Shown here one piece after another: positions 4,218-27,500 of a stretch of 33,715 nt of DNA (its first letter is position 1; each line of letters starts with the position of its first letter). The notes below the pieces were generated by a model. It searched no databases. It was not told the DNA's origin and saw only the letters and a program-made list of their open reading frames with translations. The translations under genes were made by a program, and so were the position numbers. The DNA lies in the IMG/VR virus record IMGVR_UViG_2534682164_000009. One strand, written 5' to 3'. The stretch is from a virus (taxonomy: Duplodnaviria > Heunggongvirae > Uroviricota > Caudoviricetes).

Positions 4218-4428
4218 AAACGGTTTGCGGGAAAAGGAGAGTTAAGTAGAATTGCAGCGGGTGCTTGAGGCTATCTGTCTCAGGCATGAACACCAAAAGG
4301 CAGATAGAGAAAAGCCCCAGTTAACATTACGCGTCCGGCAAGACGCTTAACATTAATCTGAGGCTCAATCTATGAACGGCAAATCTAGGTTAGCCTCTTA
4401 CGTGCCGAAAGGCAAGGAGAAGCAGGCT

Positions 4429-4584
4429 ATGAAGCAGCAAAAGGCGATGTTAATCGCCCTGATCGTCATCTGTTTAACCGTCATAGTGACGGCACTGGTA
4501 ACGAGGAAAGACCTCTGCGAGGTACGAATTCGAACCGGCCAGACGGAGGTCGCTGTCTTCACAGCTTACGAACCTGAGGAGTAA
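4429..4584 (+). CDS. hokD: Hok/Gef-family type I toxin (HokD/RelF-like)
   Basis: 51-aa MKQQKAMLIALIVICLTVIVTALVTRKDLCEVRIRTGQTEVAVFTAYEPEE matches the Hok family and, as recalled, HokD; intrinsic terminator follows; an in-frame upstream ATG (4372) could extend it. Confidence 0.85.
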   Translation: MKQQKAMLIALIVICLTVIVTALVTRKDLCEVRIRTGQTEVAVFTAYEPEE

Positions 4585-5410: not shown

Positions 5411-6037
5411 GTGCGGGTATTACTTCGACCTGTTCTGGTACCGGAACTCGGTCTGGTTATCGTTAAGCCAGGCCGTGAATCAATGTCAGCATTCCATAAC
5501 GGCAGAATACTGGTGGAGCCGGAACCAAAAAGCATGCGTAATCTGCCGTCCGGGGTCGTTCCTGCCGCTCGCCAGCCGCTGGTGGAAGACAAAACATTGC
5601 TGCCGTTTTTCAGTAACGCACGGGTGATTCGTGCTGCTGGTGGTGCTGGTGCATTGTCTGACTGGCTGTTGCGCCATATTAAATCCTGCCAGTGGCCACA
5701 CGGCGATTATCATCACAGCGAAACCGTCATTCACCGTTATGGTACCGGCGCAATGGTGTTGTGCTGGCACTGCGACAACCAGCTGCGTGACCAGACATCC
5801 GAATCACTCGAGCAACTTGCTCATCAAAACCTGTCAGCATGGATGATTGACGTCATCGGTCACGCAATAAGCGGTACGCAGGAGCGTGAATTATCTCTGG
5901 CTGAATTATCCTGGTGGGCGGTCCGCAATCAGGTGGCGGACGCGCTACCGGAAGCGGTATTACGTCGTTCGCTGGGGTTGCGTGCGGAAAAAATTCGCTC
6001 TGTGTACAGTGAAAGCGACATCATACCGGGAGAGTAG
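5411..6037 (+). CDS. hypothetical prophage protein (208 aa), YdfU/DUF968-like N-terminal part; ends at in-frame TAG
   Basis: Frame is continuous with the YbcO-like ORF across a single TAG at 6035-6037; combined 5411-6469 is 352 codons. Confidence 0.45.
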   Translation: MRVLLRPVLVPELGLVIVKPGRESMSAFHNGRILVEPEPKSMRNLPSGVVPAARQPLVEDKTLLPFFSNARVIRAAGGAGALSDWLLRHIKSCQWPHGDYHHSETVIHRYGTGAMVLCWHCDNQLRDQTSESLEQLAHQNLSAWMIDVIGHAISGTQERELSLAELSWWAVRNQVADALPEAVLRRSLGLRAEKIRSVYSESDIIPGE

Positions 6038-22861: not shown

Positions 22862-23605
22862 ATGACACAGACTGAATCAGCGATTCTGGCACATGCCCGG
22901 CGGTGTGCGCCTGCGGAGTCGTGCGGCTTCGTGATAAGCACGCCGGAGGGGGAGCGGTATATCCCTTGTGTGAATATTTCCGCAGAGCCGGAGGCGTATT
23001 TTCGTATCGCACCGGAAGACTGGCTGCGGGCAGAGATGCAGGGGGAGATTGTGGCACTGGTCCACAGTCATCCCGGTGGGCTGCCCTGGCTGAGCGAGGC
23101 TGACCGGCGGTTGCAGATAAAAAGCGCACTGCCCTGGTGGTTGGTCTGCCGGGGTGACATTCACAAATTCCGCTGTGTGCCACATCTGACAGGACGGCGC
23201 TTTGAGCACGGGGTGACGGACTGTTACACGCTGTTCCGGGATGCTTATCATCTGGCGGGGACTGAAATGCCGGATTTTCATCGCGAGGATGACTGGTGGC
23301 GCAACGGTCAGAACCTTTACCTGGACAATATGGCGGTCACCGGCTTTTACCGGGTGCCCCTGTCCTCTGCACAGGCGGGCGATATTCTGCTGTGCTGCTT
23401 TGGTGCTTCGGTACCGAACCATGCCGCCATTTACTGCGGCAACGGTGAGCTGCTTCACCATCTGCCTGAACAACTGAGTAAACGGGAGAGGTATTCCGAA
23501 AAATGGCAACGACGAACGCATTCAGTCTGGCGTCACCGCCACTGGCACGCATCTGCCTTCACGGGGATTTACAACGATTTGGCCGCCGCCTCAGCCTGTA
23601 TGTGA
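22862..23605 (+). CDS. K: tail tip assembly protein, lambda gpK-like
   Basis: MTQTESAILAHARRCAPAESCGF… matches lambda K; start ATG at 22862 (the track ORF begins further upstream in the same frame). Confidence 0.9.
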   Translation: MTQTESAILAHARRCAPAESCGFVISTPEGERYIPCVNISAEPEAYFRIAPEDWLRAEMQGEIVALVHSHPGGLPWLSEADRRLQIKSALPWWLVCRGDIHKFRCVPHLTGRRFEHGVTDCYTLFRDAYHLAGTEMPDFHREDDWWRNGQNLYLDNMAVTGFYRVPLSSAQAGDILLCCFGASVPNHAAIYCGNGELLHHLPEQLSKRERYSEKWQRRTHSVWRHRHWHASAFTGIYNDLAAASACM

Positions 23606-24183
23606 ACACGGCAGCGGAAGCCATTCGCGCCCTGTCGATGCAGATGCCGGGCTTTCGCCGTCAGATGAACGAAGGCTGGTACCAGATACGTATTGCCGGT
23701 TATGACACGGCACCGGAGGCGGTGTACGCCCGTCTTCACGAACAGCTGGGTGAGGGAACGGTCATCCACATTGTGCCGCGACTGGCCGGGGCCGGAAAGG
23801 GTGGACTGCAGATTGTGCTGGGGGCGGCAGCCATCGTGGGCTCTTTCTTCACTGCCGGGGCATCAATGGCGTTATGGGGTTCAGCCCTGGCAGCCGGTGG
23901 TTTTTCTGCCACCACGATGCTGTTTTCACTTGGAGCCAGCATGATTCTGGGCGGTGTGGCCCAGATGCTGGCCCCGAAGGCAAAAACACCGGATTACCGC
24001 GCAACGGATAACGGCAGACAGAACACGTACTTTTCCTCACTGGATAACATGATTGCCCAGGGGAACCCGATGCCGGTGCCTTACGGGGAAATGCTGGTTG
24101 GCTCCCGCCGTATATCCCAGGACATCAGCACCCGTGATGAAGGCGGGGGCGGAAAGGTCGTGGTTATCGGGCGGCAGGGGTAA
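23503..24183 (+). CDS. I: tail tip assembly protein, lambda gpI-like
   Basis: 226 aa …ARICLHGDLQRFGRR… …YFSSLDNMIAQGNPMPVPYGEMLVGSRRISQ… matches lambda I. Confidence 0.9.
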   Translation: MATTNAFSLASPPLARICLHGDLQRFGRRLSLYVNTAAEAIRALSMQMPGFRRQMNEGWYQIRIAGYDTAPEAVYARLHEQLGEGTVIHIVPRLAGAGKGGLQIVLGAAAIVGSFFTAGASMALWGSALAAGGFSATTMLFSLGASMILGGVAQMLAPKAKTPDYRATDNGRQNTYFSSLDNMIAQGNPMPVPYGEMLVGSRRISQDISTRDEGGGGKVVVIGRQG

Positions 24184-24394
24184 AAAGAATAAAAAATCCC
24201 GCAGTGATCGCGGACAGGAACTGCGGGAGAGTTACGAAGATTAAGTGTAAGGAATTATTCTTATATCACGACAAAAAATTAACGCAGAGAAATTATACGC
24301 GCCACAGTCAGTTTGTGAAAATGTGAAGATATTCAGAATTTTTATGCCATTACCGGTTTTAACCAACAGGATTATCGGTGGGCATGAAAGAAAA

Positions 24395-24427
24395 CCCCGG
24401 TATCTGCTGATACCGGGGTTTCTCTTT
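24395..24427. terminator. bidirectional intrinsic terminator inside the I-J intergenic insert
   Basis: Perfect 8-bp stem CCCCGGTA/TACCGGGG, 8-nt loop, A-rich 5' flank and T-rich 3' flank. Confidence 0.7.
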
Positions 24428-24524
24428 AGCATGGCAGAAATGTGTTTCATGCTTTTCGGGCGAAGGATATCCGACTTCTGTACGGAATGGCAAGTGGCGG
24501 TTAATTTATTCAGGGGAAGGCTGT

Positions 24525-27500
24525 ATGGGAAAAGGTGGCGGTAAGGCACACACGCCTCGTGAGGCGAAGGATAATCTCAAATCCACGCAGATGATGAGCG
24601 TGATTGATGCGATTGGTGAGGGACTGATAGAAGGTCCGGTGAAGGGACTGCAGAGTATCCTGGTGAACAAAACCCCGCTGACGGACACGGACGGTAATCC
24701 CGTGATACACGGTGTGACGGCGGTCTGACGCGCCGGGGAGCAGGAGCAGACACCACCGGAAGGCTTTGAGTCCTCCGGTGCTGAAACCGGACTGGGCGTG
24801 GAAGTGACGAAGGCAAAACCGGTGACGCGCACCATTACGTCCGCGAACATTGACCGCCTGCGGGTTACCTTCGGGGTGCAGTCACTGGTGCAGACCACGT
24901 CAAAGGGTGACCGAAACCCGACATCCGTCCGCCTGCTGATTCAGTTACAGCGTAACGGTAACTGGGTGACAGAAAAGGATGTCACCATTAACGGCAAGAC
25001 CACCTCGCAGTTTCTGGCGTCGGTGATTCTGGATAATCTGCCTCCCCGTCCTTTTAACATCCGGATGGTCCGGGAGACAGCGGACAGCACCACGGACCAG
25101 CTGCAGAATAAGACGCTGTGGTCGTCATACACCGAAATCATCGATGTGAAACAGTGCTACCCGAACACGGCCATTGTGGGGCTGCAGGTGGATGCGGAGC
25201 AGTTCGGCGGCCAGCAGATGACGGTGAACTACCATATCCGCGGTCGCATCATCCAGGTGCCGTCAAACTATGACCCGGAAAAACGCACGTACAGTGGTAT
25301 CTGGGACGGTAGCCTGAAACCGGCATACAGCAACAATCCGGCCTGGTGTCTGTGGGACATGCTGACTCACCCGCGCTACGGCATGGGAAAACGTCTGGGG
25401 GCGGCGGATGTGGACAAGTGGGCGCTGTATGCCATCGGGCAGTACTGCGACCAGACGGTCCCGGATAGTTTCGGGGAGACCGAGCCGCGGATGACCTTCA
25501 ATGCGTACCTGGCACAACAGCGTAAGGCATGGGACGTGCTCAGTGATTTCTGCTCGGCGATGCGCTGTATGCCGGTATGGAACGGCCAGACGCTGACGTT
25601 TGTTCAGGACCGCCCGTCGGATGTGGTGTGGCCGTACACCAACAGCGATGTGGTGGTGGATGATAACGGCGTGGGTTTCCGCTACAGCTTCAGTGCCCTG
25701 AAGGACCGGCACACGGCGGTGGAGGTGAATTATACCGACCCGCAGAACGGCTGGCAGACCTCCACGGAACTGGTGGAAGACCCGGAAGCCATACTGCGCT
25801 ACGGACGCAACCTGCTGAAGATGGACGCGTTCGGCTGTACCAGCCGCGGTCAGGCCCACCGTGCCGGACTGTGGGTGATAAAGACCGAACTGCTGGAAAC
25901 GCAGACGGTGGATTTCACGCTCGGGTCTCAGGGGCTGCGGCACACACCCGGTGACATCATTGAAATCTGTGATAACGACTATGCCGGGACCCTGACCGGC
26001 GGACGTGTCCTGTCCATTGATGCTGCCACCCGCACTCTGACGCTGGACCGTGAAGTGACACTTCCGGAGACCGGTGCCGCCACGGTGAACCTGATTAACG
26101 GCAGCGGTAAGCCGGTGAGTGTGGACATCACCGAACACCCCGCGCCGGACCGGATACAGGTCAGTACCCTGCCTGATGGTGTGGAGACATACGGGGTGTG
26201 GGGACTCTCCCTGCCGTCACTGCGCCGTCTCCTGTTCCGCTGTGTCTCCGTCCGGGAAAACACGGACGGCACCTTTGCCATCACGGCGGTGCAGCACGTA
26301 CTGGAAAAAGAAGCCATCGTGGATAACGGTGCCCGCTTTGAGCCGCAGTCAGGTTCCCTGAACAGCGTCATCCCACCGGCAGTGCAGCACCTGACGGCCA
26401 GTATCTGGCGCAGGCGAAATGGGACACGCCGCGGGTGGTGAAGGGTGTGCGCTTCAGTCTGCGCCTGACCAGTGGTAAGGGAACGGATGCCAGACTGGTG
26501 ACCACCGCCATCACCGCAGACACGGAGCACCGTTTCAGCGGCCTGCCGCTCGGGGAATACACCCTGACGGTGCGGGCGATAAACAGCTATGGCCAGCAGG
26601 GTGAACCTGCCACCACCACCTTCCGGATTGCCGCACCGGCAGCACCGTCGCGGATTGAGCTGACGCCGGGCTATTTTCAGATAACCGCAACGCCGCATCT
26701 TGCCGTTTATGACCCGACGGTACAGTTTGAGTTCTGGTTCTCGGAAAAGCGGATTGCGGATATCAGGCAGGTTGAAACCAGCGCCCGCTATCTTGGCACG
26801 GCGCTGTACTGGATAGCCGCCAGTATCAATATCAAACCGGGCCATGATTATTATTTTTACGTTCGCAGTGTGAACACCGTTGGCAAATCGGCATTCGTGG
26901 AGGCTGTCGGTCGGGCGAGCGATGATGCGGAAGGTTACTTGGATTTTTTCAAAGGAGAGATAGGGAAAACACATCTGGCTCAGGAGCTGTGGACGCAGAT
27001 TGATAACGGTCAGCTTGCGCCTGACCTGGCTGAAATCAGGACGTCCATTACGGATGTCAGCAATGAAATCACGCAGACTGTCAATAAGAAACTGAAAGAC
27101 CAGAGTGCGGCAATCCAGCAGATACAGAAGGTTCAGGTTGATACAAATAATAATCTGAACAGCATGTGGGCTGTGAAGCTGCAACAGATGAAGGACGGAC
27201 GCCTTTATATTGCGGGTATCGGTGCCGGTATTGAGAATACGCCAGCAGGAATGCAGAGTCAGGTGCTGCTGGCGGCAGACAGGATTGCGATGATTAATCC
27301 TGCGAATGGCAACACAAAGCCGATGTTTGTTGGTCAGGGCGATCAGATATTCATGAACGACGTGTTCCTGAAACGCCTGACGGCTCCCACCATTACCAGC
27401 GGCGGTAATCCTCCGGCATTTTCCCTGACACCGGACGGAAAACTGACCGCTAAAAATGCAGATATCAGTGGCAGTGTGAATGCGAACGCCGGGACGCTCA

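Follow-up and report, generated by a model that had tools for sequence, protein, structure and literature searches.

The phage sequence studied here is a 33,715-nucleotide stretch of DNA from IMG/VR record IMGVR_UViG_2534682164_000009 (Caudoviricetes), referred to below as the window. It contains a gap of exactly 341 bp (24184–24524) between the tail genes I and J, bounded by the TAA stop codon of I (24181–24183) and the ATG start codon of J (24525). Our results suggested, with a probability of about 0.85, that this spacer consists of a reverse-strand small RNA (sRNA) moron of the PasB/EcOnc22 family and a second module, M2, which carries a terminator-like, possibly insulating hairpin (Table 1). 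The insert can be explained by something that has been demonstrated in two pathotypes, and no new biology is needed.

The I–J gap holds an allele of the PasB/EcOnc22 sRNA family

PasB ("pathogenicity-associated sRNA B") is one of five prophage sRNAs found through Hfq RIL-seq (in which interacting RNAs are ligated and sequenced) in the enteropathogenic Escherichia coli (EPEC) O127:H6 strain E2348/69, where it is encoded in prophage PP6 (Pearl Mizrahi et al. 2021, PMC8550237). It is 83 nt long (NC_011601.1 1466343–1466261, minus strand; northern probe AATCCCGCAGTGATCGCGGAGCT, Table S6 of that paper). Northern blots confirmed it as an RNA whose stability is Hfq-dependent (PMC8550237). In the RefSeq genome of E2348/69 this interval lies between the gene of a tail assembly protein (end 1466255) and gpJ (start 1466496). 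The PasB locus aligned with positions 24190–24330 of the window, and the promoter hexamers, the 5' GCGUUA with the following U-run and the terminator coincided.

EcOnc22, EcOnc23 and EcOnc24 are homologous Hfq-crosslinked RNAs from the prophages Sp15, Sp14 and Sp11 of enterohaemorrhagic E. coli (EHEC) O157:H7 Sakai, whose northern-blot signal lies at about 85 nt and which lose stability in the absence of hfq (Tree et al. 2014, PMC4104026). Their function was listed as unknown in a 2021 review (PMC7873438). The coordinates given by Tree et al. are offset by about 123 bp from NC_002695.2, and the placement was settled by the northern probe sequence: the reverse complement of probe GGGAGAGAACGATGAAGATTAACTGATGAGTTA contains a 23-nt core that matches the RNA body exactly, immediately 5' of the CCCGCAG of the terminator. 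All three RNAs lie in 240-bp gaps between host-specificity and tail-assembly genes, on the opposite strand. Judged by probe sequence and synteny, PasB and EcOnc22–24 are the same locus family, a link that is made neither in the table of the PasB paper (PMC8550237) nor in a 2026 census (Zhu, Shabalina and Storz 2026, bioRxiv 10.64898/2026.05.13.724894).

A covariance model (R1) was built from seven PasB-type alleles and Sakai EcOnc22, with all window-type sequences excluded, and was searched against the 33.7-kb window with the filters off. It matched 24190–24285 on the minus strand over its full length (model positions 1–94 of 94) with 53.9 bits (E ~7e-13), and the next-best match in the window had E = 0.017. 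The pairwise identity of the RNAs was 72% for the window and PasB, 74% for the window and EcOnc22, and 74% for PasB and EcOnc22. In the window, E2348/69 and Sakai Sp15, Sp14 and Sp11, the locus sits in the I–J slot of a lambdoid prophage and is encoded opposite to the tail genes. A CCCGCAG-loop-CTGCGGG stem followed by A and a tail of U6–8 lies within about 10 nt of the I stop codon, and a sigma-70 promoter belonging to the gene itself precedes the terminator by about 95 nt, with hexamers and spacing as in E2348/69 PasB. The window allele falls outside the search settings of the census (blastn word size 28, query coverage >75%; bioRxiv 10.64898/2026.05.13.724894), which define the census and not homology. 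In conclusion, anatomy, family membership and synteny show that the gap of the window holds an allele of the PasB/EcOnc22–24 sRNA family. This kind of locus is already known, and the window allele is apparently common yet uncatalogued.

The window locus shares with PasB the I–J slot, the reverse orientation, the −35 and −10 hexamers with their 16-nt spacing, the terminator stem and the U-tail, as well as the 5' GCGUUA..U-run, the position of the ARN run and a common core, UCCUU.ACA.U.AUCUUC. Different cassettes make up the 5' block, seed flanks and terminator loop of the two, and E2348/69 has no M2 but a segment of about 70 bp with a different hairpin in its place. With EcOnc22–24 the window locus shares the slot, the orientation, the CCCGCAG/CTGCGGG stem (followed by U7 in the Sakai RNAs) and the core UUAAUCUUC, whereas in Sakai the promoter region differs (−10 AATAAT, and no properly spaced TTCACA) and M2 is lacking.

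The sRNA gene is a complete transcription unit facing the tail operon

The promoter of the sRNA gene has 11 of the 12 consensus matches; the scan that detected it gave 3 promoter-like sites, compared with 0.9 expected. It is conserved 5' of E2348/69 PasB and is located some 95 nt before the terminator U-tract ends, and a near-consensus promoter at this distance makes the locus a complete transcription unit facing the tail operon. Transcription is predicted to start at the G at 24285, 7 nt past the −10 hexamer, and to end after the U6 tract. The predicted RNA is about 83–95 nt long (~24285 to 24191), and the complete unit fills the left 150 bp of the gap. The annotated 5' end of E2348/69 PasB corresponds to position ~24273 of the window. 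In the terminator, CCCGCAG (24227–24221) pairs with CTGCGGG (24204–24198); a consensus terminator scan also flagged a minus-strand terminator here and reported it as an inner alternative stem (24214–24198). This terminator is one-directional, with no T-run after the hairpin on the plus strand.

The initial annotation, which was made from the letters of the window, had proposed a reverse-strand sRNA ending at the 24198–24227 terminator, and the terminator scan, the promoter and the homologues agree with it in kind. The size and content that it gave to this RNA did not hold. It had described an RNA of 150–200 nt bracketed by two terminators, starting just past the hairpin at 24395–24427 and carrying the CA-rich stretch CACATTTTCACAAAC as a functional single-stranded element. 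Such a transcript is improbable, because the measured homologues are 83 and about 85 nt long, the gene has its own promoter at 24319–24292, no minus-strand promoter-like site was found in 24320–24390, and E2348/69 and Sakai produce their RNAs without that hairpin. The second hairpin, taken at first as a boundary of the sRNA, lies about 70 bp upstream of the sRNA promoter and is part of M2, a separate optional module. Longer isoforms of prophage sRNAs do exist (PasA has a minor form of 236 nt, PMC8550237), and weak read-through from upstream remains compatible with the locus. CACATTTTCACAAAC is not in the RNA but overlaps the −35 TTCACA and its upstream flank. Since it is promoter DNA, it does not represent a GcvB-type target mimic, and no GcvB-target motif CACAACA is present in the window RNA.

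The sRNA of the window has several sequence features compatible with Hfq binding, namely the U6 tail, an (ARN)3 run and a 5' U-run. A run of (ARN)3–5 starts at RNA position 22–24 in all three classes (window, PasB and EcOnc22), and the ARN motif has been described as an Hfq contact (Tree et al. 2014, PMC4104026). The ARN run and U-tail are as expected for an Hfq-dependent RNA, which is what we predict for the window allele. The UCCUU within the conserved core UUCCUUACACUUAAUCUUC is complementary to the Shine-Dalgarno-like AAGGA, and the core is a candidate for the pairing seed.

Table 1. Coordinates of the features in and around the I–J gap of the window
Feature	Position	Strand	Remarks
Tail assembly gene I	23503..24183	+	Longest open reading frame; the PGAP version in a 99.8%-identical genome is shorter, 193 aa
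PasB/EcOnc22-family sRNA, window allele ("type B")	24191..24285	-	Covariance model R1 match and alignments
Rho-independent terminator of the sRNA	24198..24227	-	CCCGCAG / 16-nt loop / CTGCGGG, then A and U6 (24196–24191)
Single-stranded conserved core UUCCUUACACUUAAUCUUC	24236..24254	-	Candidate seed; AUCUU inside it is invariant across alleles
(A-R-N)3 motif AAGAAUAAU	24254..24262	-	Candidate contact for the Hfq distal face
Sigma-70 promoter of the sRNA gene	24292..24319	-	−35 TTCACA (24319–24314), 16-nt spacer, −10 TATAAT (24297–24292)
Module M2, optional and nearly invariant; non-coding, separates the sRNA promoter from the J ribosome-binding site	24338..24510		173 bp
First M2 hairpin (AUGCC..ACCGGU / AUCGGUGGGCAU)	24341..24388	+	Directly abuts the terminator hairpin
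Bidirectional terminator-like hairpin	24392..24427		Perfect stem of 13 bp, loop TGCT; each strand has a T-rich tail
Weak promoter-like site TTGCCA, 18 nt, TATCCT	24464..24493	-	9/12 matches
J ribosome-binding site (GGGGAAGG) and ATG	24513..24527	+	

Proposed role of the sRNA

Expression, Hfq dependence and seed of the window allele are predicted from its homologues. In the proposed mechanism, an sRNA moron would have been inserted just past the stop codon of I, facing the tail operon. By homology, the host RNA polymerase would transcribe the sRNA in the lysogen, independently of phage late transcription, and Hfq would bind and stabilise it through the U-tail and the ARN run. Its unstructured middle would then pair in trans with host and accessory mRNAs. 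In RIL-seq, PasB had 37 interactions and took the second position in at least 98.7% of its chimeras, and its partners include ler, perB, bfpB, bfpI, ftsZ and galE (PMC8550237). Because the middle of the window RNA differs from those of PasB and EcOnc22, its set of targets is probably different.

The arrangement of the locus also raises another explanation, in which the sRNA acts mainly in cis, lowering or uncoupling J expression in the lytic cycle by way of a duplex sensitive to RNase III or of transcriptional interference, and pairing in trans is secondary. The whole sRNA gene is contained in the late operon, on the other strand and 7 nt past the I stop codon. The RNA is perfectly complementary to the I–J intercistronic late mRNA, and transcription from its promoter meets the late operon head-on; the position of the gene is conserved in EPEC, EHEC and the window. 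We consider such a main role doubtful. The RIL-seq partners of PasB are trans targets on other replicons (PMC8550237), and both PasB and EcOnc22 were detected in uninduced lysogens (PMC8550237, PMC4104026). In the window the sRNA locus has been retained next to a dead J. Moreover, the RNA body is highly variable while the flanking I and J are conserved, which is a better fit to diversifying trans seeds. A cis-antisense effect on the late I–J transcript is possible in addition to the trans role, and less likely as the main one.

Module M2 and the hairpin upstream of J

M2 was found in 1446 of 5426 E. coli genomes. Its identity reaches 99% or more in 1441 of 1451 records, and all 1694 places that it occupies in E. 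coli are the same segment at an identity of at least 95%; no feature is annotated on it among the records listed. In IMG/VR it always lies just upstream of J, except for one copy disrupted by an insertion sequence and one rearranged copy. Both sRNA allele types occur with and without M2, which is missing from both E2348/69 and Sakai; these have the segment of about 70 bp with a different hairpin.

Two adjacent hairpins of M2 fold stably on the plus strand (−42.6 kcal/mol for the region 24330–24432, z = −6.4). The second of them has the stem AAACCCCGGTATC / TGCT / GATACCGGGGTTT, with 10 perfect G/C-rich pairs that become 13 with an A-T extension (24392–24421). It folds with −27.1 kcal/mol on the plus strand (z = −6.3) and −26 kcal/mol on the minus strand (z = −5.5), and none of 200 shuffled sequences equalled it. 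The initial annotation had placed here, at 24395–24427, a bidirectional terminator with a perfect 8-bp stem; the hairpin is real and predicted to work in both directions, and its stem is longer than described, 13 bp. The simple consensus terminator scan did not list the 24392–24427 hairpin, in our opinion because its T-runs are absorbed into the extended stem.

A GC-rich hairpin with a T-run was found shortly before J, on the late-operon strand, in lambda and in prophages of E2348/69, Sakai, Enterobacter, Rahnella and Pantoea. The sequences of these stems are unrelated and the structure is kept; in the Enterobacter, Rahnella and Pantoea prophages the spacers are about 50 bp long, and in six of the loci compared the hairpin comes directly after the stop codon of I. 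The lambda hairpin (J02459, ~15462–15490) reads AAACCGCC TGCG GGCGGTTTTGTCATTT and is GC-rich with a T-rich run on the late-operon strand. Compared with it, the window hairpin is longer (13 bp), its A-tract flank allows both directions, and it sits in a 173-bp module about 100 bp from J. To our knowledge, no named function is known for the lambda I–J hairpin. Because similarly placed hairpins precede J across lambdoid prophages, the window hairpin is the local form of a conserved tail-operon feature, a terminator-like element kept upstream of J, and not part of the sRNA. Comparing the I–J junction among lambdoid prophages, as had been advised at the outset, provides the most telling indication of what M2 does.

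Q antitermination is established lambda biology. The M2 hairpin may stop unmodified RNA polymerase coming from either side, while Q-modified late transcription would read through it. The A-tract on the upstream side would let the hairpin block antisense transcription from J into the sRNA promoter, and it would thereby insulate both J and the sRNA promoter in the prophage.

It was also considered that M2 has a product of its own, which could be a minus-strand sRNA of about 65–70 nt, a two-hairpin 3' fragment of the plus strand released from the late mRNA, or a 66-aa protein. The phage ASU11 record alone calls a 66-aa hypothetical protein (ASU11_gp9c) over M2. This annotation, the two adjacent stable hairpins (z = −6.4), the weak promoter-like site and an identity of at least 99% in 1441 of 1451 records, despite the mosaic sRNA body next to it, are compatible with a product, and speculatively the weak site could drive a minus-strand RNA of about 65–70 nt that ends at the bidirectional hairpin. 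Such a product is nevertheless unlikely. The promoter match is poor (9/12, with −10 TATCCT). The 66-aa open reading frame (ORF) has no ribosome-binding site, runs through the 13-bp hairpin, matches no PHROG family and is not called by PGAP (Prokaryotic Genome Annotation Pipeline) among the records listed. The near-identity may reflect recent spread, and M2 has no Rfam match better than E = 0.01.

A number of observations weigh against the reading of the spacer as an sRNA moron followed by an insulating M2. The identity of the RNA to PasB and EcOnc22 is just 72–74% and the presumed seed differs, so targets are not transferable between them. The annotated 5' end of PasB lies 14 nt downstream of the predicted start, which makes the position of the 5' end uncertain. 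As a whole, the RNA folds just modestly better than shuffled sequences (z = −2.3), and the terminator stem never varies across alleles, which makes a covariation test uninformative and leaves the structure with no covariation support. The U-tail counts 6 U where most alleles have 7, and one base is likewise missing from the 5' U-run. Rfam holds no family for a PasB-type RNA against which the gap could be tested. In M2, the T-rich tails of the hairpin are interrupted (TTTCTCTTT on the plus strand and TTTTCTTTC on the minus strand, with 7 of 9 U on each), and its insulator role is a proposed one.

The I–J junction as an insertion site

Morons are independent promoter-gene-terminator units inserted between genes that phages conserve (Juhala et al. 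2000, as cited in Tree et al., PMC4104026). The sRNA unit of the window has a GC content of 37.5%, which is below those of its neighbours (60% for I and 56.5% for J), and with this composition and its own promoter and terminator it fits the classical description of a moron. Like the morons of lambdoid phages, it is lower in GC and inserted exactly between conserved genes. It differs from classical morons in that its cargo is RNA rather than protein and in that it is oriented against the late operon.

Other cargo occurs at the same place. Between I and J, prophages of Pseudocitrobacter faecalis and Enterobacter wuhouensis have an ORF of 181 aa (2136–2678 on the plus strand in one locus). Its product has a lipoprotein-like signal (…LLISAC) and matches phrog_8179, a family of unknown function, with E = 7.5e-73. 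With this ORF at the same junction, I–J is a recurrent insertion site of morons.

Allele diversity and distribution

With two exact-pattern scans of IMG/VR the loci came to 167, with 29 distinct RNA alleles, 16 of which were aligned. The fixed parts of the alignment are the 5' GCG.UA, the U-run, and the terminator stem with its U-tail. All 16 aligned alleles have the identical stem, with loops of differing length and sequence. The 5' block, the flanks of the core UCC.U..AC...U.AUCUUC and the terminator loop are interchangeable cassettes, and the RNA body is a mosaic.

Of 5,426 complete E. coli genomes, 800 have the window-type RNA body, including CFT073, ATCC 25922 and strains of sequence types ST131 and ST69 (such as CP102488), 956 have the PasB type, and 542 the EcOnc22 type, usually with at least two copies. 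No feature was annotated under the window-, PasB- or EcOnc22-type matches among the records listed. The window type is the version carried by reference extraintestinal strains (CFT073, ATCC 25922, ST131, ST69). At 99% identity or more, the window allele itself is matched by only 2 of 804 E. coli records, the best listed match being 100% identical, and most other window-type records differ by one base in a homopolymer run. The U-tail (24191–24196) and the 5' U-run (24273–24278) of the window each lack one base of the commonest allele. Such shortening could reflect genuine variation with an effect on Hfq binding or, alternatively, a sequencing error in homopolymers.

The 2026 census described PasB as the least diverse Pas sRNA (bioRxiv 10.64898/2026.05.13.724894). 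The longest exact run common to the window allele and PasB is 24 nt. Since this is shorter than the word size of 28, the census search could not seed on the window allele, and the "least diverse" label is probably a product of these settings. The family exceeds the census picture in both size and diversity. Tentatively, the locus may be a swappable-seed cassette, in which a fixed frame of promoter and Hfq-binding terminator recombines blocks of the RNA body, different alleles rewire different sets of host genes, the window allele is the one associated with extraintestinal pathogenic E. coli, and M2 adds a second transcript or a bidirectional insulator. If this idea were true, the view of PasB as least diverse would be an artefact of the search settings.

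A scan of species-representative genomes with protein I gave only 12 loci. These helped with the hairpin before J and the lipoprotein-like moron, and no homologue of the sRNA was found outside Escherichia. Three short contigs labelled Streptomyces flavalbus, Parendozoicomonas haliclonae and a Clostridiales metagenome-assembled genome carry an E. coli-type gene I (91–98% identity) and a pasB-family locus; these non-enterobacterial contigs are most likely E. coli contamination. In two contigs of IMG/VR the sRNA gene has been lost and M2 and J have been retained. The first has an insertion directly upstream of the M2 hairpin (contig positions ~5810–6030), whose end resembles the 3' end of a transposase gene, and in the second a rearrangement joins unrelated sequence to the −35 region.

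Composition and coding content of the gap and its neighbours

The GC content is 41.9% in the gap, 60.1% in gene I, 56.5% in gene J and 52.1% in the window overall. The gap ORFs (40 aa, 66/73 aa and 102 aa) had no PHROG match with E < 0.08, and PGAP placed no feature over the gap among the E. coli records listed; a protein-coding moron was rejected on these two grounds. The initial description of an AT-rich, non-coding gap of 341 bp was therefore borne out, with the size exact, a GC content of 41.9%, and no PHROG or PGAP support for the ORFs. Its statement that I and J abut in lambda is roughly correct, although 60 bp actually lie between them (I ends at 15444 and J starts at 15505).

We also weighed whether the gap is just a passive spacer with terminators and gives no RNA product. 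Both hairpins are terminator-like, and no annotation covers the gap among the genomes listed. This explanation is highly improbable, since homologous loci give northern-validated, Hfq-bound RNAs in two pathotypes and the promoter is conserved and a near-perfect match. Two findings had been named beforehand as fatal to the sRNA proposal, the lack of a transcript and the identity of the gap with the 3' end of a known gene. Homologous gaps give RNAs on northern blots in EPEC and EHEC, and among the E. coli records listed the gap is never the 3' end of a known gene.

Gene J of the window is broken into three ORFs on the plus strand (24525–24728, 24798–26441 and 26435–27976), and the annotation of the 99.8%-identical chromosome of an E. 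coli ST69 strain gives it as a frameshifted pseudogene. The prophage is probably defective, though its sRNA gene is intact. Survival of the sRNA locus beside a dead J fits the domestication of a phage-borne regulator by the host.

Comparison with other prophage sRNAs

An Rfam search of 24000–24700 gave no match at the gathering threshold, and up to E = 10 it returned only terminator-driven noise. The best sub-threshold matches in the gap were Ysr202 (E = 0.011), sR32 (E = 0.019) and SSRC34_2 (E = 0.03). The search of the candidate sRNA against Rfam, another check advised in the initial annotation, thus assigned the gap to no family.

AgvB and AsxR (RF02702 and RF02703) are known lambdoid prophage sRNAs that lie downstream of PR' next to Q and the stx genes (Tree et al. 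2014, PMC4104026). Like the window sRNA they are short, Hfq-bound prophage moron RNAs with a constant terminator-proximal part and variable, target-defining parts; they differ in site, length (51–60 nt) and sequence, which is unrelated. The window RNA shows none of their marks, namely an Rfam match, a site downstream of PR' and the conserved 42-nt 3' region. An AgvB-like anti-GcvB RNA was rejected because of the PR' location of that class, the lack of an Rfam match, and the CA-rich stretch being the −35 region. PasA, PasC and PasD were rejected because they are located at the lysis/Q region and not in the tail operon. HnrS (EcOnc10–12) was rejected as a different multicopy sRNA of Sp9, Sp10 and Sp12, whose paper mentions neither PasB nor EcOnc22, and lambda PreS/LPR1 was rejected because it sits between ea10 and ral.

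Elsewhere in the window, Rfam matches at the gathering level were obtained on the plus strand for a sok antitoxin RNA, three tRNAs and two tandem STnc100 copies (4259–4434, 9339–9585, 9664–9853 and 10131–10340). RNAs of these kinds are typical cargo of the Q-lysis region of lambdoid prophages. STnc100 was related to PasD in the 2026 census (bioRxiv 10.64898/2026.05.13.724894). A terminator-ended, sRNA-like unit at 10341–10429 on the minus strand abuts the second STnc100 copy (10131–10340, plus strand) and is convergent with it. This unit gave weak matches only (R1, E = 0.017; OmrA-B, 25 bits, below the gathering score), and a possible TTGCGC...TATTAT promoter lies upstream of it on the minus strand. 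In this it is similar to the "convergent sRNA pairs" reported for lambdoid prophages at their PR' moron site.

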